Shown: in pieces, positions 6,282 through 32,086 of the stretch | How the letters are laid out: the number at the start of each line of letters is the position of its first letter | Position numbering within the stretch: the stretch's first letter is position 1 | IMG/VR virus record: IMGVR_UViG_3300045988_121667 | Span: 1-32,086 of that record | Direction: 5' to 3' (one strand) | Source: a virus | DNA: 32,086 nucleotides | Notes under the pieces: model-generated | Database searches by the model: none | Told to the model about the DNA's origin: nothing | The model's input: the letters and a program-made list of their open reading frames with translations, nothing else | Translations under genes and position numbers: made by a program

Positions 6282-8732
6282 ATGGAATTAAGGAAAATGA
6301 CCTTTAAGGTTGCGACCGCTACTAGTGCAAAGTCGGTAAGTTGGAAGAACCGTACCTACACATGGGACGACCTTGTTAAGAGGTTCACAAGTGCAAAGGT
6401 GACGGAGGAAACCTACCGCGAGTTCATGGCAGCGAGCAAAGCCGAACAAGGAGCAATCAAGGACGTAGGAGCATTCATGGGAGGAGAGCTGCTTGGAAGC
6501 AGACGAAGCAAGAACAACGTAGGCGAGCGTTCATTATTGGCGCTTGATATCGACTACGGAGAAGCCGATTTCCCGGAACGTTTTTTCGCTGCCATCAATT
6601 GCGCGTGTATCATTCACGGAACACATAAACATAACCCGAAAGCAGGTACGCTACGTTATCGCGTTATCATTCCCTTGTCTGAACCCGTGGATGGTGAACA
6701 ATACGAAGCTATCGCACGAAAGGTTGCCGAGATTACCGGGATAGACCTGTACGACCGCACGACGTTTCAGCCGGAACGCTGCATGTTCTTCCCGTCGGTG
6801 TCCCGCGATGTCGATTATTTTTACACCGACTATTCACAGTTATGTGAAACCCCTCTGGACGTGAACGAATACCTTAACATGTACGAGGATTGGCACGACA
6901 CGACCGAATGGGCCTACCATAAGGACGAGAAGGGCGAAGTACGTACCTTTGTTAAGGAGCAGCAGGACCCTACCTTAAAGGAAGGTACGGTGGGCGACTT
7001 TTGCCGGGCGTACACCATTTCAGAAGTCATCGCGAAATACCTGCCGGACGTTTACGAGCCGACAGACCGACCCGATAGATGGACGTATAGCGGTGGCTCC
7101 ACCTCGGGGGGCATGATTACCTTTGATGATATGTTCGCCTATTCGTTCCATAACAACGACCCTATCCAGGGAAACCACGTGTTTAATGCCTATGACCTGG
7201 TACGTGTACACAAGTTCGGTAAGATGGATAAGGGGCAAGACCGTACGAAGTCGACCGACGCGATGAACGAACTTGTAAACAAGGACGCGAAAGTAGCGGA
7301 GATGCGTGCATCCCGTTTGCTGGCAAAGACTACCGAGGTAATGAACGACTTCGAGGAAACGATAGAACCCGAAGAGGTTCACAATAATCTGCCCGAAGTA
7401 TCATTTGAAAAGGTCATGGCCGAACTCGAGGTTGATAAGAAAGGTAGCTACTTGCCGAGCGCAAAGAACCTGGGTCTCATACTTAAGTATGACCCGAATT
7501 TAAAAGGCCTGATTGCCCGTGACCTATTCAAAGAGCGCCGGGTTGTCACCCGTACCCCGATATGGAGACCGAAAGACAGTAGTACGGACTTTCAAGACGT
7601 AGACTTTGCGGGGGTTAGAAAGCATATCGAGGACGTCTACGGCATCAGTAGTTCGTTTAAGGTGGACGATGCCATATCGTTGGTTGCCGAGATTAATTCT
7701 TTCCACCCGGTGCAGAACTATCTGACTAACTTGGAATGGGACGGTACGGAACGTGTGGATACCGCGTTAATAGATATACTCGGTGCAGAGGATAACATAT
7801 ACACCCGTGAGGCATTTCGTATCATGATGGTAGGAGCTGTCAAGCGTATTTTCCAGAAAGGGTGTAAATTCGATAGTATGCTGGTGCTTCAGTCGGACCA
7901 AGGGGCAGGAAAAAGTACATTCCTTAAGATGCTGGGCAAACAGTGGTTCTCAGATAGCCTTTCAACCATGGACGGCAAGACAGCGTTTGAACAACTGCAA
8001 GGTAACTGGATATTGGAGATTGCCGAGTTATCAGCGATGAGACGTTCAGAGGTCGAGATGGTGAAAAACTTCATCACGAAGACAGAGGACAGCTTCCGAC
8101 CAGCGTACGGGCGTGTCACAAAGAACTTTCCGAGACAGTGCGTTTTCTTCGGTACGACTAACAAGGACGAGTTTTTGAAGGATGCAACCGGAGGGCGTAG
8201 ATTCCTACCCGTACATGTACGTGCCAACGAAAACACCCATCTTATCTTCGAGGCCGATTTCCCGGCATACGTAGACCAGTTATGGGCCGAGGCCGTCAAC
8301 ATGTATTTCCGCGGTGTGCCTACGTTGTTATCAGCCGAAGCTGAGGTGATAGCCGAACAAGGAAGAGAGGAACACTTCGAGACCGACCCACGTACCGAAG
8401 CGGTTGCAAGGTATTGCAATATGTACGTGCCTACCAACTGGGAGAAGATGTTCCCCCTGGAACGTCGTATGTATTACGAGAATTATGATGAAGGCGAGAT
8501 AAAGAAGGAGGAATGCGTGCGGATGGACTTCGTTAGCGCTACGGGCGTGCTGGTTGAGGCCTTAGGTTTCGAGGTAGGGAAAATCAAGGCAAAGGACGCT
8601 TCCGAGATTAGTGATATACTGAACAAGTTACCCGGATGGGAGCGTAGCAGGCAGAGGGTGAAGTCATACGGACAACAAAGGGGATTCAAAAGAATTGTTA
8701 ACGCAGGCGTCGATACCAAGTCTGAAAATTAA
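6282..8732 (+). CDS. Bifunctional primase-polymerase / VirE (D5-like, SF3) helicase
   Basis: 816 aa. The N-terminal AEP-type primase region has LLALDIDYG and RYRVIIPL. The C-terminal VirE/D5-type NTPase has P-loop SDQGAGKSTFLKML and Walker B-like WILEIAEL. Confidence 0.88.
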   Translation: MELRKMTFKVATATSAKSVSWKNRTYTWDDLVKRFTSAKVTEETYREFMAASKAEQGAIKDVGAFMGGELLGSRRSKNNVGERSLLALDIDYGEADFPERFFAAINCACIIHGTHKHNPKAGTLRYRVIIPLSEPVDGEQYEAIARKVAEITGIDLYDRTTFQPERCMFFPSVSRDVDYFYTDYSQLCETPLDVNEYLNMYEDWHDTTEWAYHKDEKGEVRTFVKEQQDPTLKEGTVGDFCRAYTISEVIAKYLPDVYEPTDRPDRWTYSGGSTSGGMITFDDMFAYSFHNNDPIQGNHVFNAYDLVRVHKFGKMDKGQDRTKSTDAMNELVNKDAKVAEMRASRLLAKTTEVMNDFEETIEPEEVHNNLPEVSFEKVMAELEVDKKGSYLPSAKNLGLILKYDPNLKGLIARDLFKERRVVTRTPIWRPKDSSTDFQDVDFAGVRKHIEDVYGISSSFKVDDAISLVAEINSFHPVQNYLTNLEWDGTERVDTALIDILGAEDNIYTREAFRIMMVGAVKRIFQKGCKFDSMLVLQSDQGAGKSTFLKMLGKQWFSDSLSTMDGKTAFEQLQGNWILEIAELSAMRRSEVEMVKNFITKTEDSFRPAYGRVTKNFPRQCVFFGTTNKDEFLKDATGGRRFLPVHVRANENTHLIFEADFPAYVDQLWAEAVNMYFRGVPTLLSAEAEVIAEQGREEHFETDPRTEAVARYCNMYVPTNWEKMFPLERRMYYENYDEGEIKKEECVRMDFVSATGVLVEALGFEVGKIKAKDASEISDILNKLPGWERSRQRVKSYGQQRGFKRIVNAGVDTKSEN

Positions 8733-8757
8733 CGACTTGTTAACAGATTGACTAAAA

Positions 8758-8816
8758 ATAGGGTTTATTCTTAAACGGTGTTAATGAAATATACAACGTA
8801 TCGGAATAAACCCTAT
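8758..8816. promoter_or_regulatory. 13-bp perfect inverted repeat whose right arm overlaps a promoter box
   Basis: ATAGGGTTTATTC (8758-8770) and GAATAAACCCTAT (8804-8816) are exact reverse complements with a 33-nt spacer. The right arm overlaps TAtaTTTG at 8814-8821. Confidence 0.6.
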
Positions 8817-8821
8817 ATTTG
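8814..8821 (+). promoter_or_regulatory. Bacteroidota-type -7 promoter box TAtaTTTG
   Basis: Exact TAnnTTTG match in the 130-bp gap after the primase-helicase gene. ATG 8824 is too close to be downstream of the start site, which favours ATG 8863. Confidence 0.5.
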
Positions 8822-8862
8822 TAATGCCAAAAGGAAATAATAATAATTTAAAGATTAAGATT

Positions 8863-10320: not shown

Positions 10321-10479
10321 ATGGTACATATATTAAAAGTAAGGATAGTGATAGATAACGAGCCGCCAAGAACGGTGCACCCTACGGAGCAGGTTTTCGC
10401 TACCGTAGAGGACGCAAGAGAGTTTTTTAAATCAGAGTATAAGACAGAAAAAGTGATAATGTATTATGAGCAACGTTAG
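10321..10479 (+). CDS. Small hypothetical protein (52 aa, below the track cutoff)
   Basis: Read by hand: ATG 10321 ... TAG 10477-10479 (MVHILKVRIVIDNEPPRTVHPTEQVFATVEDAREFFKSEYKTEKVIMYYEQR). It exactly fills the gap between neighbours and overlaps the next start by 14 nt. Confidence 0.4.
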   Translation: MVHILKVRIVIDNEPPRTVHPTEQVFATVEDAREFFKSEYKTEKVIMYYEQR

Positions 10480-11182
10480 AGATTACAATGTAGGAAAGTC
10501 CGATTATAGCAGGCACGTAATACAACCCTGGGATATATGGCGTGAATATGACTTGAACCCCTGGGATGCGGACATAGTCAAGCGCGTATTGCGTACCAAA
10601 GAGGGTGAAGATAGAAAGCTGGACTACGAGAAGATTATCCATGTATGCCAGGAGCGTATCAGACAGTTAGCGGTCGAACGGGCTGATGCCATGGAGGAGA
10701 GCGACGAGCCCGATTATAAGACAGTTATCTGCCCTTCCGAAAAGGACAAGCCCGAATTTCGGTACGGCTGTGGCACAGAGTTTGACGGAGTCTATAGGGT
10801 GTATAGCGTTTTTCAGTCCGAGGGCAGTCCATATGCGTACCTTGGGCATGACGGCCTATGCCACGTGTATTTGGACCTCGGTTCGTCTCGAAAGTGGGAC
10901 TATTTTGAATATGATTGGATGCCGGGAAGAACCTTTGGTCTACATGGCATACCATTAGACAAGGAAGACCACGCATCGTCAATGGAAATCGGTAAGCACG
11001 GCTTAACGTACGGGAGGCACGCCTATATAATGACTCATGGCAGCCTATACCGTTACATGGACGTCACACCGAAAGGACACGTGTATGCGAGGTTTGAGGA
11101 CAACGGGAAATTCACCAAGGTAGTGACAGAGCATAAACTATTTAACGAAGCAATTCAATATGTCAAGGGAAATAATAAGTGA
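10466..11182 (+). CDS. DUF3310-domain protein with a long uncharacterised C-terminal extension
   Basis: The N-terminal ~65 aa (NVGKSDYSRHVIQPWDIWREYDLNPWDADIVKRVLRTKEG...DYEKIIHVCQERI) follow the DUF3310 pattern. The remaining ~170 aa are unrecognised. Confidence 0.65.
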   Translation: MSNVRDYNVGKSDYSRHVIQPWDIWREYDLNPWDADIVKRVLRTKEGEDRKLDYEKIIHVCQERIRQLAVERADAMEESDEPDYKTVICPSEKDKPEFRYGCGTEFDGVYRVYSVFQSEGSPYAYLGHDGLCHVYLDLGSSRKWDYFEYDWMPGRTFGLHGIPLDKEDHASSMEIGKHGLTYGRHAYIMTHGSLYRYMDVTPKGHVYARFEDNGKFTKVVTEHKLFNEAIQYVKGNNK

Positions 11183-11501
11183 AAAGGACTTGGAGCGCAC
11201 ATTCAGTGAGCAACTGAACAGGACAAAAAAAGTGTGGGTGATAAAGCTATTATCCACCTTTGTAAAGGGTTTGCCCGATAGAATGATTCTTTGCCAGGGT
11301 GGCTACGTAGGTTTTGCCGAGATAAAGACCACCGGGAAGAAGCCTACAAAGATACAAACGTATATCCACGGGAAGCTAAGGGCGCTCGGCTTCACAGTAT
11401 TCGTCATAGACGATTTGGAAAGCCGGGACATCGCGATAACCTTCTTCCTAAATAAGGTTAAGGAAATAACCAGGGTATCGCAAAGACCATTATCTTTGTG
11501 A
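11160..11501 (+). CDS. VRR-NUC domain nuclease
   Basis: Core GLPDRMILCQGGYVGFAEIKTTGKKPTKIQ...LGFTVFVID matches the VRR-NUC PD...(D/E)xK layout. Size (113 aa) and position next to the SNF2 helicase are typical. Confidence 0.8.
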   Translation: MSREIISEKDLERTFSEQLNRTKKVWVIKLLSTFVKGLPDRMILCQGGYVGFAEIKTTGKKPTKIQTYIHGKLRALGFTVFVIDDLESRDIAITFFLNKVKEITRVSQRPLSL

Positions 11502-11524
11502 TATCGGATTAAAAACAGGAAATC

Positions 11525-11761
11525 ATGAAAAAAGGAATCAAGAATGAGATTGAATATCGCTTGGGTCTGTACTTTAGCTTGAAAAGCGGAGCGATGTATG
11601 TACGCGATAAGAAGTACGGAGACAAGGAACACGTCATGAAACAACTCGAGGAGGATATAACCAGGTACGTTATCTTCCTTTCCCGTAAACGACTCGGAGA
11701 AATTCCCGAGGAAAGGGATTTCAAGGGCATCTGCGCGTGGTATCGAACCAAATTAATGTAA
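11525..11761 (+). CDS. Hypothetical protein (78 aa)
   Basis: ORF in the track, co-oriented, fills the gap. No motif recognised. Confidence 0.5.
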   Translation: MKKGIKNEIEYRLGLYFSLKSGAMYVRDKKYGDKEHVMKQLEEDITRYVIFLSRKRLGEIPEERDFKGICAWYRTKLM

Positions 11762-13648: not shown

Positions 13649-13770
13649 TTAAGATAATAGCAGGGTTCACGGTGGTGTTTTTCATCATGGGTATCGTCGC
13701 GGTCCTTTGGCAGGTGGCGAAGTATATGGCAACCCGAGGAATGGGGGAGGACGAAGAATATGAGGATTAG
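13645..13770 (+). CDS. Small hydrophobic (single-pass membrane) protein, about 41 aa, TTG start
   Basis: Read by hand: TTG 13645 overlaps the upstream stop. (M)IKIIAGFTVVFFIMGIVAVLWQVAKYMATRGMGEDEEYED, stop TAG 13768-13770, overlapping ATG 13760. The non-ATG start makes this tentative. Confidence 0.3.
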   Translation: MIKIIAGFTVVFFIMGIVAVLWQVAKYMATRGMGEDEEYED

Positions 13771-14173
13771 ATTCATGGACCTGGCGGTGTGCCTCAACGT
13801 ACACACGTTCATCATATGGGAGTTCATAAGGCGGCACGGTCTCGAGAAGGGCGTCAAGAAGGATAGATGGGGGCGCGGCAGCGTGCCACCCCGGGAATGT
13901 CGCAAATGGATTGACAAGCTGGCGACCTATATAAGCGGGCATGACTTCACATATAAGCAGGAAGTGAACAAGAGGCAATACCTGTTCCGGGATGAAGCCA
14001 GGCGCAACGAGGAGATGCGGAACGAACAGGACGCTCCAAGGCGATACACCATAGACAAGGAAGGGAGGATAAGTCGGGCAACCCTTTTCTCCGACGGGTC
14101 CATGATGATTTGGCATTGGAGCGCTGACGGTTGGCAATTTGATAGGTGGGAAGGCGATAAGGTTACTAAATGA
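13760..14173 (+). CDS. Hypothetical protein (137 aa), last gene of the early module
   Basis: ORF in the track. Trp-rich C-terminus (MMIWHWSADGWQFDRWEGD). Followed by a terminator. Confidence 0.6.
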   Translation: MRIRFMDLAVCLNVHTFIIWEFIRRHGLEKGVKKDRWGRGSVPPRECRKWIDKLATYISGHDFTYKQEVNKRQYLFRDEARRNEEMRNEQDAPRRYTIDKEGRISRATLFSDGSMMIWHWSADGWQFDRWEGDKVTK

Positions 14174-14217
14174 TAGTACCCCTTACGAATAGCATATACC
14201 TTTAAAAAATGATAGCA

Positions 14218-14272
14218 AAAGGGCGGTTTCGGCTTACAAATAGTCAGAAATCGCCCTTTGTCATTATTTTTT
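14218..14272 (+). terminator. Rho-independent terminator closing the early module
   Basis: AAAGGGCGGTTTC (14218-14230) pairs with GAAATCGCCCTTT (14247-14259), giving 13 bp with one G-U pair and a 16-nt loop. T6 run at 14267-14272. Confidence 0.6.
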
Positions 14273-14360
14273 ATGAAAGCCTAAATCTTAAAAAGTGTTT
14301 AGATTGTTAACTGAAAAATGCTTACCAAAATGCGCACCGTGCTAACGTGTTGATAATCAA

Positions 14361-14740
14361 ATGTGGCAAGTAAAAAATATAGGCGTGGCACAGTCCTTGT
14401 CTCAATTAACTTGCTGATTCACAATATCGTTAACAGTCACTGTGCCAGGAAAAATATAGGGTGGCACAGCAAGTGGCACAGATAACTCACTGACCTATAT
14501 ATAGTTATCTATACTGTGCCACTAAATAGTATAAAATAGGTATAACACTTTATTTGGAAAAATATATGGTAATTGCAATGTAGAGATAGCAGTAATATGT
14601 ACTATTTATAAAACAAGTGTTAGAAAAATGCGTTTTGGCCGGCACAGTGGCACAATCGCTCTAACGGTCTGATACATAGCGCGTTATCTGTGCCACTTGG
14701 ACTGTGCCACCAGAAGCGTGTCTGGCACAGTAGGCAAAAA
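14361..14740. repeat. NCR-A iteron array: 8 exact TGGCACAG sites plus variants around an AT-rich palindromic core
   Basis: Exact sites at 14385-93(+), 14440-48(-), 14461-69(+), 14473-81(+), 14514-22(-), 14688-96(-), 14702-10(-) and 14722-30(+). Variants at 14639-47 and 14647-55. Inner inverted repeat TAACACTT (14543-50) / AAGTGTTA (14615-22). No ORF of 60 aa or more on either strand. Confidence 0.9.
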
Positions 14741-14849
14741 CGCTTGTAACTCCCTGGAGGACAGTGCGTTATCCGTGACAACCCCTACTTTGTAAAAGAT
14801 TTTTGATTTTCACGACTGATTGCGGGTTGGTTTGTGGCAGGAAGTTATG

Positions 14850-14857
14850 TACTTTTG
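14850..14857 (+). promoter_or_regulatory. Bacteroidota-type -7 promoter box TActTTTG (late/packaging operon)
   Basis: Exact TAnnTTTG match at the 3' edge of NCR-A, 22 nt upstream of ATG 14879. It lies inside the GTG-started track ORF (14834), which argues against that start. Confidence 0.5.
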
Positions 14858-14878
14858 CCCCACACCCTTAAGGGAATA

Positions 14879-15562
14879 ATGGACCGCGCGCATGGACAAT
14901 ATCCATTGGCCACGCACGCATTAAACCGAATAACAATCATGGCAGGAAGAACAAAGAAAGAAGCCGTCCCCGATACGAAAAAGGAAATCAAGAAGGGCCA
15001 GGCGACCGGGAAGCCCCCGAAGGCAAAGGATGAAATCAAGGCCTGCACACAACTTTATGAGGTTGTGCAGACACGAGGCGTGAACGGTGCGACGCTTAAC
15101 AGCATCGACGAGTGTATTAACTATGTGGCCGAGTACATGGACTTCTGTGAGAAGAACCCGTTCATCTCATACGAGATACTGAAAGGTGGCGCATCAGCCG
15201 GGCAGAAAGTCCCGGTAGAGAAGAAACGCGCGCCCTCCGTCGGCGGTTTCTGCCTTTTCATAGGCTGGTCCATAAAGGACTTCAATAAGAACATGGGGAA
15301 GCTGGAGAAGGCCTCCGAGACGAACCCCGATGCCGGGAACCTTCTACTCGGTTACACCCTGATAAAGGAGCTCATAACGACCGAGATGGACGAAGCGGCT
15401 CTTGCCGGGGTGGTGGATGCCAACTACATGGCGAAACTACGAGGGTTGCGAGACCTTAAGGACATTACGAGCAATGGCAAGGAGGCAGGCACGAAGGCCA
15501 TGCAGGTCAATGTGCTTTCCGAGGACGCCGTCAAGAACCTACAGAAGTTAGGGGGTATCTGA
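14879..15562 (+). CDS. terS: Terminase small subunit
   Basis: Sits immediately upstream of TerL and overlaps it (TGATG). Basic N-terminus, then FCEKNPF...PSVGGFCLFIGWSIKDFNKN, which resembles the TerS HTH region. The start is uncertain (ATG 14879 or ATG 14939, MAGRTKKE...). Confidence 0.7.
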   Translation: MDRAHGQYPLATHALNRITIMAGRTKKEAVPDTKKEIKKGQATGKPPKAKDEIKACTQLYEVVQTRGVNGATLNSIDECINYVAEYMDFCEKNPFISYEILKGGASAGQKVPVEKKRAPSVGGFCLFIGWSIKDFNKNMGKLEKASETNPDAGNLLLGYTLIKELITTEMDEAALAGVVDANYMAKLRGLRDLKDITSNGKEAGTKAMQVNVLSEDAVKNLQKLGGI

Positions 15563-16707
15563 TGAATGTGACATATACATTTGAAAAGCTATTGGCGGCT
15601 TTCGTCGACCCCCGGATACGCGGTGTCGCATCAAAGGGCGGCACGCGTTCCGGCAAGACATGGGCGACGCTCCAGATGCTTCATCTGCTTTGCTCCACTG
15701 CGGAAAAGCCCCTTATCGTTTCGTGCGTCGCCGCTACGCTTCCCATGGTGAAACGGGGCATGCAGCGGGACTTCAGACAGATGCTGGCAGCCGAGGGCGT
15801 ATGGGATGAGAATTCGTTCAACAAGACCGAGGGGTGTTACACATACCCCAACGGCTGCATGATAGAGTTCTTTGGCGTCGATAACGCCTCGAAGGTGCAC
15901 GGCCCCGCACGTGATATCCTGTTCGTCAATGAGGCACAGAGCATACCGCGTGAAATCTTCAGGCAGCTCGACATCCGTACACGTAAGAAGGTCATTATCG
16001 ACTTCAACCCGGTACGTAAGTTCTGGGGTGAGACCGAGTTCGTAGGGGACCGATACGTAACCATCCATTCAACCTACAAGGATAACCCGTACCTAACCAA
16101 GGAGCAGGTGGGCGCCATCGAGAATAACAGGAACGACGCCAACTGGTGGCGTGTCTACGGTGAGGGCGAGACGGGCGGCGTAGAGGGCAACGTATATCCC
16201 AGCTACGAAGTCATCGACGAACTGCCCGAAACGTTCACCGGGCGATGTATCGGGCTTGACTTCGGTTTCGTTAAGGACCCGACGGCCATTGTCGATATAC
16301 GCTTCGAGGGCCGGGACCTGTACGTCGACCTGCTTTGCTACGAGACGGGTCTGCTTAACAGCGCCATCGCGGACTACCTGACGGACCAGGGGCTCAACCG
16401 CGTCGTCACCGTGTGCGATAGTGCAGAGCAGAAGAGTATCGTGGAGCTACAGCAAAGACATATCAAGGCGATACCGTGTGTCAAGGGGCGCGGCTCGATA
16501 TCGGCCGGTATCGCCCAGGTATCACAGTTCAAACTGCACGTAACGAAACGCAGCGCCAAGATGCTGGACGAGTTGGACAATTACAAGTTCATCAAGGACG
16601 AAGCGACGGACACGTACACCAATGAACCCATAGACGCCTGGAACCACTCTCTCGACGCCTTGCGTTATGGCGTGGATTACCTCATACGTAAATACCGCCC
16701 CAAATAG
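15562..16707 (+). CDS. terL: Terminase large subunit (PBSX/XtmB-like)
   Basis: Walker A KGGTRSGKTWA, Walker B ILFVNEAQS, and a C-terminal RNase H-like nuclease region IGLDFGFVKDPTAIV ... DALRYG. Confidence 0.88.
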   Translation: MNVTYTFEKLLAAFVDPRIRGVASKGGTRSGKTWATLQMLHLLCSTAEKPLIVSCVAATLPMVKRGMQRDFRQMLAAEGVWDENSFNKTEGCYTYPNGCMIEFFGVDNASKVHGPARDILFVNEAQSIPREIFRQLDIRTRKKVIIDFNPVRKFWGETEFVGDRYVTIHSTYKDNPYLTKEQVGAIENNRNDANWWRVYGEGETGGVEGNVYPSYEVIDELPETFTGRCIGLDFGFVKDPTAIVDIRFEGRDLYVDLLCYETGLLNSAIADYLTDQGLNRVVTVCDSAEQKSIVELQQRHIKAIPCVKGRGSISAGIAQVSQFKLHVTKRSAKMLDELDNYKFIKDEATDTYTNEPIDAWNHSLDALRYGVDYLIRKYRPK

Positions 16708-16796
16708 CATCTGCCTGCCCGCTACGGGCTTTTCTCCCCCTCCGATAGTGGGTAACTACTAACCGCGACAAGGAAGGTCGCTTAAAACGCTTTAAA

Positions 16797-17411
16797 ATGA
16801 AGAATTTACTTTTCAGACTATCTTTCAAGATTGCCAATATCCGTAATCGCTCCGCCATGCTGCGTATCGCGAACATGCCAGCGGACGGCACGGTGCGAAT
16901 GACACGGGACGAGGAACGTTTGCTCAAGGACCTAATCAGATACCTTAGGCCTTCCCAGGTTGCAACCCGTAACGGCAAGGCAGTGTACCGCCTTAAGGAC
17001 ATCGAGGAAATCGGTCTATGGGCTGTCCTTGAAACACGAAGGGCCGAGGACGCGTTAGAACGTATCAAGGCATGGACCGATGATAACTACGAACCCGTTA
17101 CCGTCGTGGACGCTGTGAAACTCGACAAATTCATAGTAAGGCAGTTGGAAATCGCAGACGGACTGGAGCAGGTCATATTCCAAAACATGCACGGCAAAGG
17201 CGGTGAAAGCGCACTGACCGGGGACGAGAATATCAGGCAGGCAAAGAACCTTCTCGGACTTGTGCAGGTGACAGCCGAGCTTTTCCACTGTAGCTTTGAC
17301 GAAGCGAAGCAAATCAACTACTCGGATGCCATGCTGGCAATCGCCAAACGTAACGACGAGATAGAGAAAGAGAAACGTGAATTAAAGAAACAACAATCTA
17401 AAAACCGTTAG
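16797..17411 (+). CDS. Hypothetical protein (204 aa)
   Basis: ORF in the track, in the morphogenesis module. Coiled-coil-like basic C-terminus. No motif recognised. Confidence 0.6.
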   Translation: MKNLLFRLSFKIANIRNRSAMLRIANMPADGTVRMTRDEERLLKDLIRYLRPSQVATRNGKAVYRLKDIEEIGLWAVLETRRAEDALERIKAWTDDNYEPVTVVDAVKLDKFIVRQLEIADGLEQVIFQNMHGKGGESALTGDENIRQAKNLLGLVQVTAELFHCSFDEAKQINYSDAMLAIAKRNDEIEKEKRELKKQQSKNR

Positions 17412-29955: not shown

Positions 29956-30454
29956 ACTTGTGCCGTTTATCCTCCAGTGGGAAGGCGGTTTTGTTAATGA
30001 CCCCGACGACTTAGGAGGGGCGACCAACAAAGGTATTACAATAGGCACGTTTACCGAGTACAGACGGAAGAAGGGGTTAAAGGCCCCTACCGTCGAGGAC
30101 TTGAAAGACATATCCGATGCCGAATGGCACGACGTTTTCAAGTCCTTGTACTGGGACAGGTGGAAAGCTGATGAGATTAAGAACCAATCAGTAGCCAATA
30201 TCCTAGTTGATTGGGTTTGGGCTTCCGGTGTGCACGGAATTAAAAGACCCCAAAAGTTGTTGGGTGTGGCAGCCGATGGGCTGGTAGGCCCAAAGACTAT
30301 CGCGGCGATTAACGCAGCAGACCAGAGAAAGCTGTTTGACGCTATCAAGGCGGACCGCGCAAAGTTTATCGACGAGATTTGCAAGGCACGTCCCAAGAAT
30401 GAGAAGTATAGAAAGGGTTGGATGAACCGTATTAATGCCATTAAGTATGAGTAG
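29939..30454 (+). CDS. Endolysin: GH108 N-acetylmuramidase with PG_binding_3 domain
   Basis: LVPFILQWEGGFVNDPDDLGGATNKGITIGTF is the GH108 signature (catalytic Glu in EGG). The C-terminal ADGLVGPKTIAAIN is the PG_binding_3 signature. Confidence 0.88.
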   Translation: MANSSKLVPFILQWEGGFVNDPDDLGGATNKGITIGTFTEYRRKKGLKAPTVEDLKDISDAEWHDVFKSLYWDRWKADEIKNQSVANILVDWVWASGVHGIKRPQKLLGVAADGLVGPKTIAAINAADQRKLFDAIKADRAKFIDEICKARPKNEKYRKGWMNRINAIKYE

Positions 30455-31025
30455 GTTCAAGCGTATCATGGTAATCGCTTTTGCTACCGTGATTGTCGGC
30501 GGTATCATATCTAGGTTGGTAGATACCGTTAAAAAGCAAAGGGCCGAAATACAGCGCCTCGATAGGAATATAGACGCGATGAACGAAGCCGAAGTACAAT
30601 ACATATCAAAGTTGGGCGATGCCGCTGTGAAGTGTAAAGCCTTGGAGCTATCCGCGAAGGAGCTAAAGAAACAGAACGCGGACCTATATGAAGAGGTGAA
30701 GGCGCTCGACGTTCGTTTGAAAGACGCGCTATCAGTTAGCAAGGTAGTGACAAGGACAGTGATTAAGGAGGTTGTGAGAACCGACACGATTGATGGGGCG
30801 GCAATAGCCGAATACCGCGACCCGTGGAACACGATTAGGTCAGAGCGAAGAGGAGACAGCACGGAGTTATCATACCAGGGTAATGACACGATAGTGGGGG
30901 TAATCTCTATTAGAAAGAAACGATTCCTCTTTTTTAGGTGGGGTGTCAAGTCGGTGGACTATGACGTTTCTAACAAAAACCCCAAATCTAGAATGAAAAT
31001 AGACCTGGCGGTGAAGTTTAAGTAA
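30435..31025 (+). CDS. Spanin-like lysis accessory protein (N-terminal TM anchor plus coiled coil)
   Basis: FKRIMVIAFATVIVGGIISRL is the TM segment, followed by the coiled coil KKQRAEIQRLDRNIDAMNEAE...KELKKQNADLYEEVKAL. Overlaps the lysin stop. Alternative start at ATG 30447. Confidence 0.55.
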   Translation: MPLSMSRFKRIMVIAFATVIVGGIISRLVDTVKKQRAEIQRLDRNIDAMNEAEVQYISKLGDAAVKCKALELSAKELKKQNADLYEEVKALDVRLKDALSVSKVVTRTVIKEVVRTDTIDGAAIAEYRDPWNTIRSERRGDSTELSYQGNDTIVGVISIRKKRFLFFRWGVKSVDYDVSNKNPKSRMKIDLAVKFK

Positions 31026-31037
31026 GACACGATTTAA

Positions 31038-31066
31038 GGGTGCATTCTTCGGAATGTGCCCTTTTT
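31038..31066 (+). terminator. Rho-independent terminator closing the late module
   Basis: GGGTGCATTC (31038-47) pairs with GAATGTGCCC (31052-61), giving 10 bp including two G-U pairs. TTCG tetraloop. T5 at 31062-66. Confidence 0.75.
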
Positions 31067-31076
31067 GCGTCTCAAA

Positions 31077-31431
31077 CTGTGCCACTGTGCCAGGCACGGT
31101 TTTTAGGTGGCACAGTCTTTGTCTCACTTAACTTGCTGTATTATAGTTACTTATAGAGGTGTGCCAGGTGAGACAGTGAAAATGGCATAACACTTTATTT
31201 TGGCGATTATTGAAATTTACCCCCTCTACTAAATATTCGTAGTATAGTAGTATTTTATATATTCCAAATAAAGTTATAAGAAAACCTCAGCCTCACCTGG
31301 CACAGTTGGCCTTTTTCCGTTGTAACGGCTTGATTTGTAGCGCATTAAGTGAGACAACGCATTTTCGAGAGGTGGCACAGTCCGAAATCGCATTTTTTAA
31401 ACGGTTGGTTTTCAACGTTTTAAGTGAGACA
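31077..31431. repeat. NCR-B iteron array: 5 exact TGGCACAG sites plus a variant, 3 TTAAGTGAGACA sites, and nested inverted repeats around an AT-rich core
   Basis: TGGCACAG sites at 31077-85(-), 31085-93(-), 31107-15(+), 31297-305(+) and 31372-80(+). Variant at 31159-67. TTAAGTGAGACA at 31120-31(-), 31345-56(+) and 31420-31(+). Inverted repeat GTGCCAGGTGAG (31161-72) / CTCACCTGGCAC (31292-303). Inner inverted repeat ACTTTATTTTGG (31192-203) / CCAAATAAAGT (31264-74). Confidence 0.9.
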
Positions 31432-31488
31432 GAGCACTTTTATTCTTAAATGATGTTAACAGAATATACGGTCTATCGATAAAAGCCG

Positions 31489-31496
31489 TATATTTG
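31489..31496 (+). promoter_or_regulatory. Bacteroidota-type -7 promoter box TAtaTTTG (early operon)
   Basis: Exact TAnnTTTG match at the 3' edge of NCR-B, about 90 nt upstream of the first early ORF. Confidence 0.5.
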
Positions 31497-31586
31497 TAAC
31501 GTTGAAAGGGAGAAACCGAGGTTTACTCACCTAACGGAAGGTCACCGAGACATTAAAACGGAAATAAACGATTAAAAGATAGAATT

Positions 31587-31805
31587 GTGAAAGCGATTAA
31601 CCGTATTCTTAGAGAAACCATTAAAGAAGGTAAGTTCGAGATGAAAAGCCATATCCTTGTATTCTTGGACGATAACGGTACGGAGCAGAGTGCGCCCTTT
31701 ACAGAGGTACGTTTCGATGGGCATCTTGACAGCTACCAGTTCGAAGGAGTAGCCTATATATTCATGCAGCCAATGTTAGAAGCGATATATAATAAAAAAC
31801 GTTAA
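31587..31805 (+). CDS. Hypothetical protein, first early gene (72 aa from GTG 31587; 54 aa from ATG 31641)
   Basis: ORF in the track. It is the first ORF after NCR-B. No motif recognised and the start is uncertain. Confidence 0.45.
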   Translation: MKAINRILRETIKEGKFEMKSHILVFLDDNGTEQSAPFTEVRFDGHLDSYQFEGVAYIFMQPMLEAIYNKKR

Positions 31806-31867: not shown

Positions 31868-32086
31868 ATGAAAGGGAAAGGGAAAGAGAAAGAGAAAGAG
31901 TTCATCATTGCGGAGGTGAAAAAGCATTTATCCGCATCAGTTAAAAGGAGTAAGTACGAAGTTATCGAGGCATCAAAGAACATGCCTACCTTTGAAGGGT
32001 TCATCCTGCCTTACTACGTCTCCACGATGGAGGGCGCCAGATACCCGGTAGACGTTGAACACATGTACATCTACTGCGACGAGTAC
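31868..32086 (+). CDS. Hypothetical protein, 5' part of the junction-spanning gene (continues at 100-183 after collapsing the overlap)
   Basis: ATG 31868 is open to the window end with exactly 73 codons. The sequence from 31988 onward duplicates bases 1-99. The N-terminus KGKGKEKEKE is encoded by a 30-nt polypurine microsatellite. Confidence 0.7.
   Translation, partial: MKGKGKEKEKEFIIAEVKKHLSASVKRSKYEVIEASKNMPTFEGFILPYYVSTMEGARYPVDVEHMYIYCDEY
31988..32086. repeat. Terminal direct repeat, right copy (identical to 1-99)
   Basis: Read directly; see the left copy. Confidence 0.95.

Follow-up and report, generated by a model that had tools for sequence, protein, structure and literature searches.

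The stretch of DNA analysed here, referred to below as the window, is the whole of the IMG/VR virus record IMGVR_UViG_3300045988_121667 (32,086 nucleotides), and our subject is a short repeat, TGGCACAG, which is concentrated in its two long gene-free stretches, together with the primase-helicase of the same virus that is proposed to read it. The window is circular, with a terminal overlap of 99 bp and a unit length of 31,987 bp, and according to the list of open reading frames (ORFs) the + strand carries every gene. The two gene-free stretches, non-coding regions (NCRs) named NCR-A and NCR-B, are the only long ones in the genome, and each of them precedes one half of the genes. The early half, downstream of NCR-B, encodes a DUF2800 PD-(D/E)XK nuclease, an Enc34-type protein that binds single-stranded DNA (SSB), an exonuclease, PolA, a VapE-type helicase of 816 aa whose N-terminal part is a primase (PriRep in the following), a resolvase-like endonuclease and an SNF2 helicase. 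The late half, downstream of NCR-A, encodes TerS, TerL and the virion and lysis proteins, which were identified partly through the annotation of phage EMB1.

PolA, SSB and the terminase are encoded on the circle itself, and tail tape-measure, portal and lysis genes are annotated in the close relative EMB1; judged by its sequence, the window is a lytic-type siphovirus of gut Bacteroides, related to Bacteroides uniformis phages such as EMB1. Among phages in culture, the closest relatives are siphoviruses that infect Bacteroides uniformis or B. xylanisolvens (BU241P1, BU1-1, EMB1, EMB2 and others), with a primase-helicase 75% identical to PriRep. EMB1 and EMB2 form clear plaques and are circularly permuted, and EMB2 has been reported to be a headful packager (PMC9584325). 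By analogy with EMB2, the phage of the window would also package by headful and would need concatemers.

NCR-A and NCR-B are built on the same plan (Table 1). In both of them a terminator-like hairpin is followed by left iterons in both orientations, an AT-rich core of ~115 bp, right iterons and a TAnnTTTG box, and the innermost iterons are arranged as minus-core-plus. Bacteroides promoters carry a -7 box with the consensus TAnnTTTG. In each region the right iterons are inverted relative to the left set, as seen in a 22-nt inverted repeat in NCR-A (14470-14491 / 14678-14699) and in a perfect 13-nt inverted repeat that brackets the core of NCR-B (31160-31172 / 31292-31304). When the whole genome was ranked by A+T content in 100-nt segments, the core of NCR-A came first (78%) and that of NCR-B fourth. 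An alignment of the two regions extends along their length, its aligned columns being 73% identical, and on this evidence they are paralogues. Their 32-bp blocks (14385-14416 and 31107-31138) are identical at 30 of 32 positions and, because the circle measures 31,987 bp once the 99-bp overlap is taken into account, they lie 16,722 and 15,265 bp apart, nearly diametrically opposite. Boxes of the form ATAACACTTTATTT(T)GG stand at the left edge of each core, and within the window they are confined to the two NCRs.

Table 1. Positions in the window of PriRep, of the two NCRs and of the elements found in them (iteron starts are followed by their strand)
Feature	Position	Strand	Description
PriRep, 816 aa	6282..8732	+	primase (N-terminal), VapE/SF3 helicase and C-terminal winged helix
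PriRep C-terminal domain	8202..8729	+	residues 641-816; ends in winged helix: helix 770-782, beta-hairpin wing 786-793 / 797-804
Putative specificity hotspot	8640..8657	+	residues 787-792 (ERSRQR), first wing strand; sequence changes with iteron class
TGGCACAG, single copy in coding DNA	10771..10778	+	inside ORF 10466-11182
NCR-A	14174..14938		between last early gene (13760-14173) and terS (start 14939); 8 exact and 2 one-mismatch iterons
NCR-A hairpin, terminator-like	14205..14272	+	GGGCGGTTTC ... GAAATCGCCC, then T run; inverted repeat; closes early operon
NCR-A left iterons	14386..14521		exact 14386+, 14440-, 14462+, 14474+, 14514-; first copy inside 32-bp block 14385-14416
NCR-A AT-rich core	14522..14639		candidate DNA-unwinding element; 72-82% A+T in 40-nt windows
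Box ATAACACTTTATTTGG	14542-14557		left edge of NCR-A core
NCR-A right iterons	14640..14730		one-mismatch 14640+, 14648+; exact 14688-, 14702-, 14723+
TACTTTTG	14850..14857	+	match to Bacteroides -7 box TAnnTTTG; presumed late-operon promoter, ~120 bp past last iteron
NCR-B	31026..31586		between last late gene (30435-31025) and first early gene (31587-31805); 5 exact and 1 one-mismatch iterons
NCR-B hairpin, terminator-like	31038..31066	+	GGGTGCATTC-TTCG-GAATGTGCCC, then TTTTT; closes late operon; read by eye
NCR-B left iterons	31077..31166		exact 31077-, 31085-, 31108+; one-mismatch 31159-; 31108 copy inside 32-bp block 31107-31138
NCR-B AT-rich core	31176..31295		70-82% A+T
Box ATAACACTTTATTTTGG	31187-31203		left edge of NCR-B core
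NCR-B right iterons	31298..31380	+	exact 31298+, 31373+, 75 bp apart
TATATTTG	31489..31496	+	match to Bacteroides -7 box; presumed early-operon promoter, ~109 bp past last iteron; read by eye

A preliminary description of the window, made from its letters, had reported the two ORF-free stretches with shared blocks in the same order, the 32-bp match, the boxes downstream of it, the common layout and the spacing on the circle, and all of this was found again. It had also set the limits of NCR-A at 14174 and 14878, of which the former stands and the latter has to be moved: the conserved start of TerS in all relatives is the ATG at 14939 (MAGRTKKE...), therefore NCR-A extends from 14174 to 14938. 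The same description had counted 13 copies of a 9-mer in the NCRs and one elsewhere; the numbers hold under an exhaustive count on both strands, and the repeated core is an 8-mer, whose flanks often extend it to roughly [G/C]TGGCACAG[T/A].

The 14 exact copies of TGGCACAG compare with 0.55 expected (sd 0.77, maximum 3) from 100 dinucleotide-preserving shuffles of the window. Thirteen of them fall inside the two long NCRs, which make up 4% of the genome, as do all three one-mismatch copies, and several copies are spaced ~75 bp apart. Coding DNA, where the motif does not reach a similar density, holds the single copy at 10771, probably a chance occurrence outside the system, because about 0.5 copies are expected genome-wide.

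A few further elements were noticed in and around the NCRs. The word GTGAGACA has four copies, all in NCR-B (31120-31127, 31168-31175, 31349-31356, 31424-31431) and mostly in the form TTAAGTGAGACA, and the 32-bp block of NCR-A contains a copy with one mismatch; the word could represent a weak variant of the iteron (TGAGACAG vs TGGCACAG) or the site of another factor. The box AACAC?TTT?ATTTT?GG (14544-14557, 31189-31203) recurs in one relative (L194, at 3342 and 19888) and in EMB1 (L147, near 13307); it is found in the clade of the window and in part of the next clade, not in all, and may serve in unwinding or bind a host factor. Rfam, tRNA and tandem-repeat scans of the NCRs returned nothing. 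A scan for sigma-70 promoters and terminators was uninformative for a Bacteroides phage, and the consensus terminator scan gave no score to the hairpin at 14205-14272. The NCR-A sequence found no blastn match among cultured phages.

According to its sequence PriRep belongs to the Rep (VapE) family of the Staphylococcus aureus pathogenicity islands (SaPIs) and not to the P4 alpha family. Its Pfam VapE-like domain is recognized with E = 3.7e-80, and a phmmer search against the PDB matched residues 394-736 to SaPI1 Rep1 (7PDS_A, E = 9.2e-76), while for residues 1-400 the PHROG matches are families with the names DNA primase and helicase-primase. BLASTP against the alpha protein of P4 (X51522) gave a best E of 0.27. 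An AlphaFold2 model of residues 641-816, built on an alignment of 119 sequences, reached a mean predicted local distance difference test score (pLDDT) of 89.6 and closes with a helix-helix-beta-hairpin arrangement; the prediction from the single sequence (pLDDT 38) was unusable. In Foldseek this model found six chains of 7PDS (Rep1) with E between 4e-7 and 2e-5 and probability 1.0, and template modelling (TM) scores of 0.64-0.67 over 162-179 columns, that is over the whole length of the model. Among the matches listed from the PDB no other was significant, and the origin-binding domain of P4 was not among the 50 that were listed for the C-terminal model. In 118 homologues the wing is framed by a conserved GW and by YGxQ[RK]x[YF], and between these marks it is hypervariable both in sequence and in length; when the C-terminal 136 aa were used by themselves as a protein query, only 2 matches came back.

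The relatives of the window were gathered by scanning viral contigs with TerS, the primase-helicase and the tape-measure protein as anchors, which yielded ~200 loci (numbered with the prefix L), a family of 30-36-kb contigs. Close relatives keep TGGCACAG upstream of terS. In more distant ones it is absent from that place and another repeated word stands there instead, namely (C)TGCACAG, TTACACAG, TGACACAG, TGACCAG, TGTAACA, TGTCACA, TGGAACA or CCCCTAAA; in about 130 related loci the repeat varies from one genome to another, with TACACAG and GACACAG among its forms, and at least nine motif classes were seen. For 42 loci, some contigs being counted twice, two long NCRs more than 12 kb apart were captured, and in 38 of these one 7-mer is present at least three times in each of both NCRs, so that syntenic paired NCRs with the same or a co-varying motif, for which the preliminary description had advised to look, do exist in relatives. 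In three of the four exceptions an NCR is truncated at the end of the contig or occupied by a tandem array. The fourth, L165, carries ATGTACAG five times in NCR-A (1-637) and (A)TGCACAG five times in NCR-B (16682-17162), with equal spacing, and its wing hotspot reads SAKAKS; it may be a recombinant or a genome caught between two specificities.

Cultured phages follow the same pattern: all seven CTGCACAG copies of EMB1 lie in its two NCRs, as do all nine TGTCGGAAC copies of the Phocaeicola phage BV57P2, whose initiator is 60% identical. In L194 ~250 bp are nearly identical between the two NCRs, and the two NCRs of the Parabacteroides phage PM116P6, whose initiator is 46% identical, have ~330 bp in common, including an AT-rich core. 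Since paired NCRs are shared in this way by the relatives, the paralogous regions are old and evolve in concert within each genome. Iterons stand on both sides of the AT-rich core, at both arrays, in every clade examined.

Some relatives carry additional arrays in NCR-A only (L168, 3242-3706; L174, 2995-3632; L164, 2963-3703), made of 17 copies of a unit containing AATACCGGGATAG, or of TAGTCCAAC / TAGTCCGA six times; these may relate to packaging. Contig ends inside NCR-A or NCR-B are common in the family (L013, L029, L039, L042, L051, L095, L096, L133 and others). They are likely to come from assemblers breaking at the repeat common to both regions, or alternatively they may reflect a real packaging end near NCR-A.

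In order to find the protein that follows the repeat, a motif class was assigned to 53 genomes with an early region and to 60 with a late region, and identity within and between classes was compared for each gene family; the 25 early-region and 25 late-region analyses represent 47 distinct families. In a scan of 40-residue segments, from which the window's own clade was excluded, the top segments both by area under the curve (AUC) and by the gap between within-class and between-class identity were those of PriRep residues 755-811, its extreme C-terminus. For residues 755-792 the within-class identity is 0.93 and the between-class identity 0.61, with an AUC of 0.92. In the 25 late-region family analyses no segment of a late protein came close to the PriRep C-terminus. 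Residue 791 was the most class-informative of 4,538 early-region columns (U = 0.82), followed by residue 787 (0.65); the best of 5,849 late-region columns, in a separate scan, reached 0.70.

When the wing was aligned against the iteron class, one motif was found for each hotspot variant. GWERSRQR goes with TGGCACA, GWVRSRRR with TGGAACA, GWER[AS]TRR with TGTAACA and GWER[SG]VRR with TGTCACA, and in this short-loop set arginine at position 790 corresponds to G at the third base, threonine or valine to T. The other pairs are GWQRAANGKT with CTGCACAG, GWKRSADAKS with TTACACAG, GWQRAANAKP with TGACACAG and GWQRAAGRRA with TGACCAG. Proteins that are 98% identical over residues 1-700 still fall in different classes and differ at the hotspot, and among pairs with 92-97% body identity the hotspot identity is 0.82 in the same class vs 0.63 in different classes. 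Additionally, distances of 5.4 kb and 7.2 kb separate the 3' end of the PriRep gene from the arrays, and the intervening genes track the class less well, therefore simple physical linkage does not explain the association.

Two other ideas were considered and dropped. A sigma-54 promoter was rejected since TGGCAC-N5-TTGT is confined to the two 32-bp blocks, the remaining copies are without the second element and the motif varies with the PriRep wing. The intergenic region directly after the PriRep gene (8733-8823), considered as the origin, is AT-rich and contains no TGGCACAG; a TGTTAACA palindrome and a promoter-like box are found there instead. This palindrome (TGTTAACAGA) is present at 8738-8745 and, in NCR-B, at 31454-31461, upstream of TAnnTTTG boxes. 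The window has more GTTAACA than expected (17 copies vs 5.25), and in relatives (e.g. L098, 12440-12916) a non-coding region of 380-800 bp directly 3' of the primase-helicase gene contains it 4-5 times; the word may act as an additional regulatory site that does not vary.

Since the repeat co-varies with residues at the tail of PriRep, the arrays of the NCRs are most likely loading sites of PriRep. Our preferred interpretation, to which we would give a probability of roughly 0.7, is that in the two NCRs the phage has duplicate iteron origins of the SaPI type, which its own PriRep reads as the proposed iteron-binding and self-loading initiator. The two-locus iteron system read by the primase/SF3-helicase, which the preliminary description had favoured, is thus supported both by the co-variation and by the homology to SaPI Rep. 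The parts of this interpretation are not equally strong. That the repeats are PriRep sites is quite probable, that they constitute at least one origin is probable, and that both arrays are active origins is rather doubtful. Binding, melting and initiation at these sites are what we infer from the comparison, and so is the firing of both copies rather than of one copy helped by an auxiliary site. Each NCR looks like a complete origin and not like an ori accompanied by a crr-type enhancer, and nothing in the sequence ranks one array below the other.

In the mechanism that we propose, PriRep made from the early operon would recognise TGGCACAG through the beta-hairpin wing of its C-terminal winged helix, and the inverted iterons flanking the ~115-bp AT-rich core would position PriRep hexamers on both sides of it. 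The core would then melt, the primase domain would prime, and the phage PolA and the Enc34-type SSB would carry out the extension. Each origin would follow one operon's terminator and precede the promoter of the operon after it, the two origins being almost opposite on the circle.

Several points weigh against this interpretation. The co-variation is correlative, and some association is expected from shared ancestry because the sequences are related. The canonical SaPI position, directly 3' of rep, is not where the arrays are found; a distant homologue of PriRep (L226, 39% identical, from another kind of phage with a cI-like helix-turn-helix gene) has a single 300-bp array there (11229-11528), in which GGAAACG occurs six times in inverted sets around an AT-rich core, that is in the canonical arrangement. 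The nucleotide skews, of which the preliminary description had suggested GC skew for mapping an origin, mark none: cumulative GC skew rises monotonically, with all genes on one strand, GC3 skew is alike in both halves, and the slight difference of AT3 skew (0.116 vs -0.027) is not interpretable. The arrays are located just upstream of operon promoters, and a regulatory side role is possible. L165 could mean that the protein tolerates both bases or that one array can be non-cognate, and the latter would be an argument against a strict need for both arrays. Furthermore, the Parabacteroides relatives have kept two paralogous NCRs with no obvious short iteron in them.

The explanation standing nearest to the preferred one shares its binder. 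One array would fire, and the other, bound by the same PriRep, would be auxiliary, either as a looping cis enhancer like P4 crr or as a fork barrier ~180 degrees away, where a stalled theta fork would switch to concatemer synthesis. In SPP1 a second locus containing repeats plus a stretch rich in AT, bound by the same protein, has been proposed to stall the fork in this manner (PMC6316719, PMC3485210), and both P4, by its annotation, and SPP1 (PMC6316719, PMC3485210) use one initiator at two distant iteron loci. A headful packager, as the window phage would be by analogy with EMB2 (PMC9584325), needs concatemers; recombination-type functions are encoded (the DUF2800 PD-(D/E)XK nuclease, the exonuclease, the SNF2 helicase and the resolvase-like endonuclease), the nearly diametrical position of the arrays fits a barrier, and L165 has different variants in its two arrays. 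The full origin layout at both arrays in every clade examined speaks against such a division of roles, as do the ~250 bp that are nearly identical between the arrays in some genomes and the lack of any sequence sign of a lesser copy. We regard this explanation as possible, to be held tentatively.

The remaining explanations give up the origin altogether. Each array has a terminator on one side and a TAnnTTTG box on the other, with the box 109-120 bp downstream, and the arrays head the only two large operons, as would be expected if the repeats were shared operator or activator sites coordinating early and late operons, with PriRep (coupling late transcription to replication) or another regulator as the binder. 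This is unlikely, since the iterons do not overlap the promoter boxes, only PriRep tracks the motif class among early and late proteins, no class-specific accessory (DNA-binding) gene family was found among the gene families of the relatives, the small early proteins show no regulator-like domain in Pfam and PHROG scans, and the inverted iterons around an AT-rich core, like the homology of the binder, point to an origin. Recognition of the repeats by TerS as packaging signals (pac), one of the alternatives in the preliminary description, is very improbable: the position of NCR-A directly upstream of terS, headful packaging in relatives (PMC9584325) and the extra tandem repeats in NCR-A of some relatives are compatible with it, but identical true N-termini of TerS occur with the TACACAG, TGCACAG and GACACAG classes, the scan signal at the TerS N-terminus arose because the ORF had been spuriously extended upstream, and pac recognition has no place for a second full array before the early genes, 16 kb away. 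We give equally little credit to the NCRs as recombination substrates or as a passively duplicated repeat with no site-specific binder. They are indeed direct repeats, nearly identical over ~250 bp in some genomes and over ~330 bp in the Parabacteroides phage; exchange between direct repeats would, however, split the genome, which is a cost and not a function, and passive duplication leaves unexplained the short repeats in both orientations within each copy, their confinement to the NCRs and their co-variation with the protein wing.

If the preferred interpretation of duplicated PriRep-read origins is taken further, these phages may be dual-origin replicons in which the PriRep wing and the iteron form a fast-evolving recognition code, with at least nine mutually orthogonal specificity types among co-circulating gut Bacteroides phages and with initiators that are otherwise 98% identical split into different types; this extension is speculative. 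Each switch of type would then require a few wing residues and ~10-18 sites at two loci to change in a matched way, and gene conversion between the origin copies could enable it, an idea that comes from the ~250 bp nearly identical between the copies in some genomes and from the one genome with two variants. The hosts of the family, Bacteroides, Phocaeicola and Parabacteroides, are major human gut genera, and some of the phages are cultured. No description of the replication mode of these gut phages was found in the searchable literature, and two precise candidate origins together with a named initiator make it directly testable. The variants of wing and iteron on near-identical backgrounds are a ready data set for how the wing of a winged helix reads DNA, a source of orthogonal initiator/origin pairs for Bacteroides replicons or phage engineering, and a case study of a protein and many dispersed sites changing specificity together.

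Some other features of the window and its family should be mentioned. The ORF 9588-9986 matches just the N-terminal third of a C5 cytosine methylase (1-101 of 324 Pfam positions); the ORFs 3' of it are without a Pfam match and few relatives have it, and it could be a truncated or split gene. The early gene 207-764 contains a perfect 18-bp tandem repeat (486-567, 4.6 copies) encoding PAKVEE repeats, and a run of five GAAAGA units (31870-31900) opens the gene crossing the junction of the circle (31868-183). The contig L150 (3300045988_010984) is a mosaic: its tape-measure protein is 94% identical to that of the window, against only 75% for TerS, and the iterons belong to the TGCACAG class, therefore late genes and replication specificity reassort.

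Among known systems the SaPIs are closest to the one proposed here. SaPI Reps are self-loading helicases that also act as initiators, and their C-terminal winged helix recognises iterons of 5-6 nt; the origins have 6-12 iterons directly 3' of rep with an AT-rich region in the middle, at least two per side and in opposite directions, and in SaPI5 primase and Rep are fused (PMC9371898). The helicase core and the C-terminal winged-helix domain of Rep1 (PDB 7PDS) are homologous to those of PriRep, and in PriRep5 of SaPI5 the primase is fused in front as in PriRep. The iterons flank an AT-rich region in opposite orientations in both systems (here five exact on the left and three exact plus two degenerate on the right of NCR-A, three exact plus one degenerate on the left and two on the right of NCR-B, with both strands used), and in both the specificity of initiator and iteron differs between close relatives. 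In contrast to a satellite, the window is a complete lytic-type Bacteroides siphovirus; its iterons measure 7-8 nt and not 5-6 nt, the variable residues are in the wing hairpin, and the single origin directly 3' of rep is replaced by two paralogous arrays at operon junctions, 5.4 kb downstream and 7.2 kb upstream. A SaPI-type origin duplicated to opposite poles of the genome would depart from the usual single origin beside rep, and the duplication may bear on the shift of headful phages from circle to concatemer replication.

The parallel with P4 ori and crr, drawn in the preliminary description, holds in part. One octamer is present at two distant cis loci, type-1 repeats being annotated in both ori and crr of P4 (X51522), and a single fusion of primase, helicase and DNA-binding domain is thought to read both of them; homology to the alpha protein was not found, and the layout is that of two complete origins. 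In P4 crr consists of two 120-bp direct repeats beside the alpha gene, whereas here each locus is a full unit of iterons, AT-rich core and iterons. As the second locus of P4 is a required cis element, it also offers a precedent for an auxiliary site.

SPP1, a lytic pac-type siphovirus, resembles the window in having two similar origin-like regions made of direct repeats plus an unwinding element rich in AT, oriL and oriR, which are separated by ~13 kb on the circle and to both of which a single origin-binding protein, gp38, binds, oriR being intergenic and bracketed by transcription signals (PMC6316719). The SPP1-like organisation of the DNA is present in the window, and binding by one protein is suggested here by the co-variation. 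The replisome organiser gp38 recruits a separate DnaB-type helicase via a loader, while the proposed initiator of the window is itself the helicase-primase, and Pfam and PHROG scans of the early genes found no domains of a gp38-type organiser, a DnaB-type helicase or a loader. SPP1 oriL is located inside the initiator gene, and the literature covered describes no co-varying specificity series for that phage. It should be emphasized that iteron origins read by the winged helix of Rep or PriRep are known already, as are the two-locus iteron systems of P4 and SPP1; as far as the searchable literature shows, what would be new is that gut Bacteroidales phages have such a system, that it is duplicated as two distal copies evolving in concert, and that there is a natural series of wing/iteron pairs.

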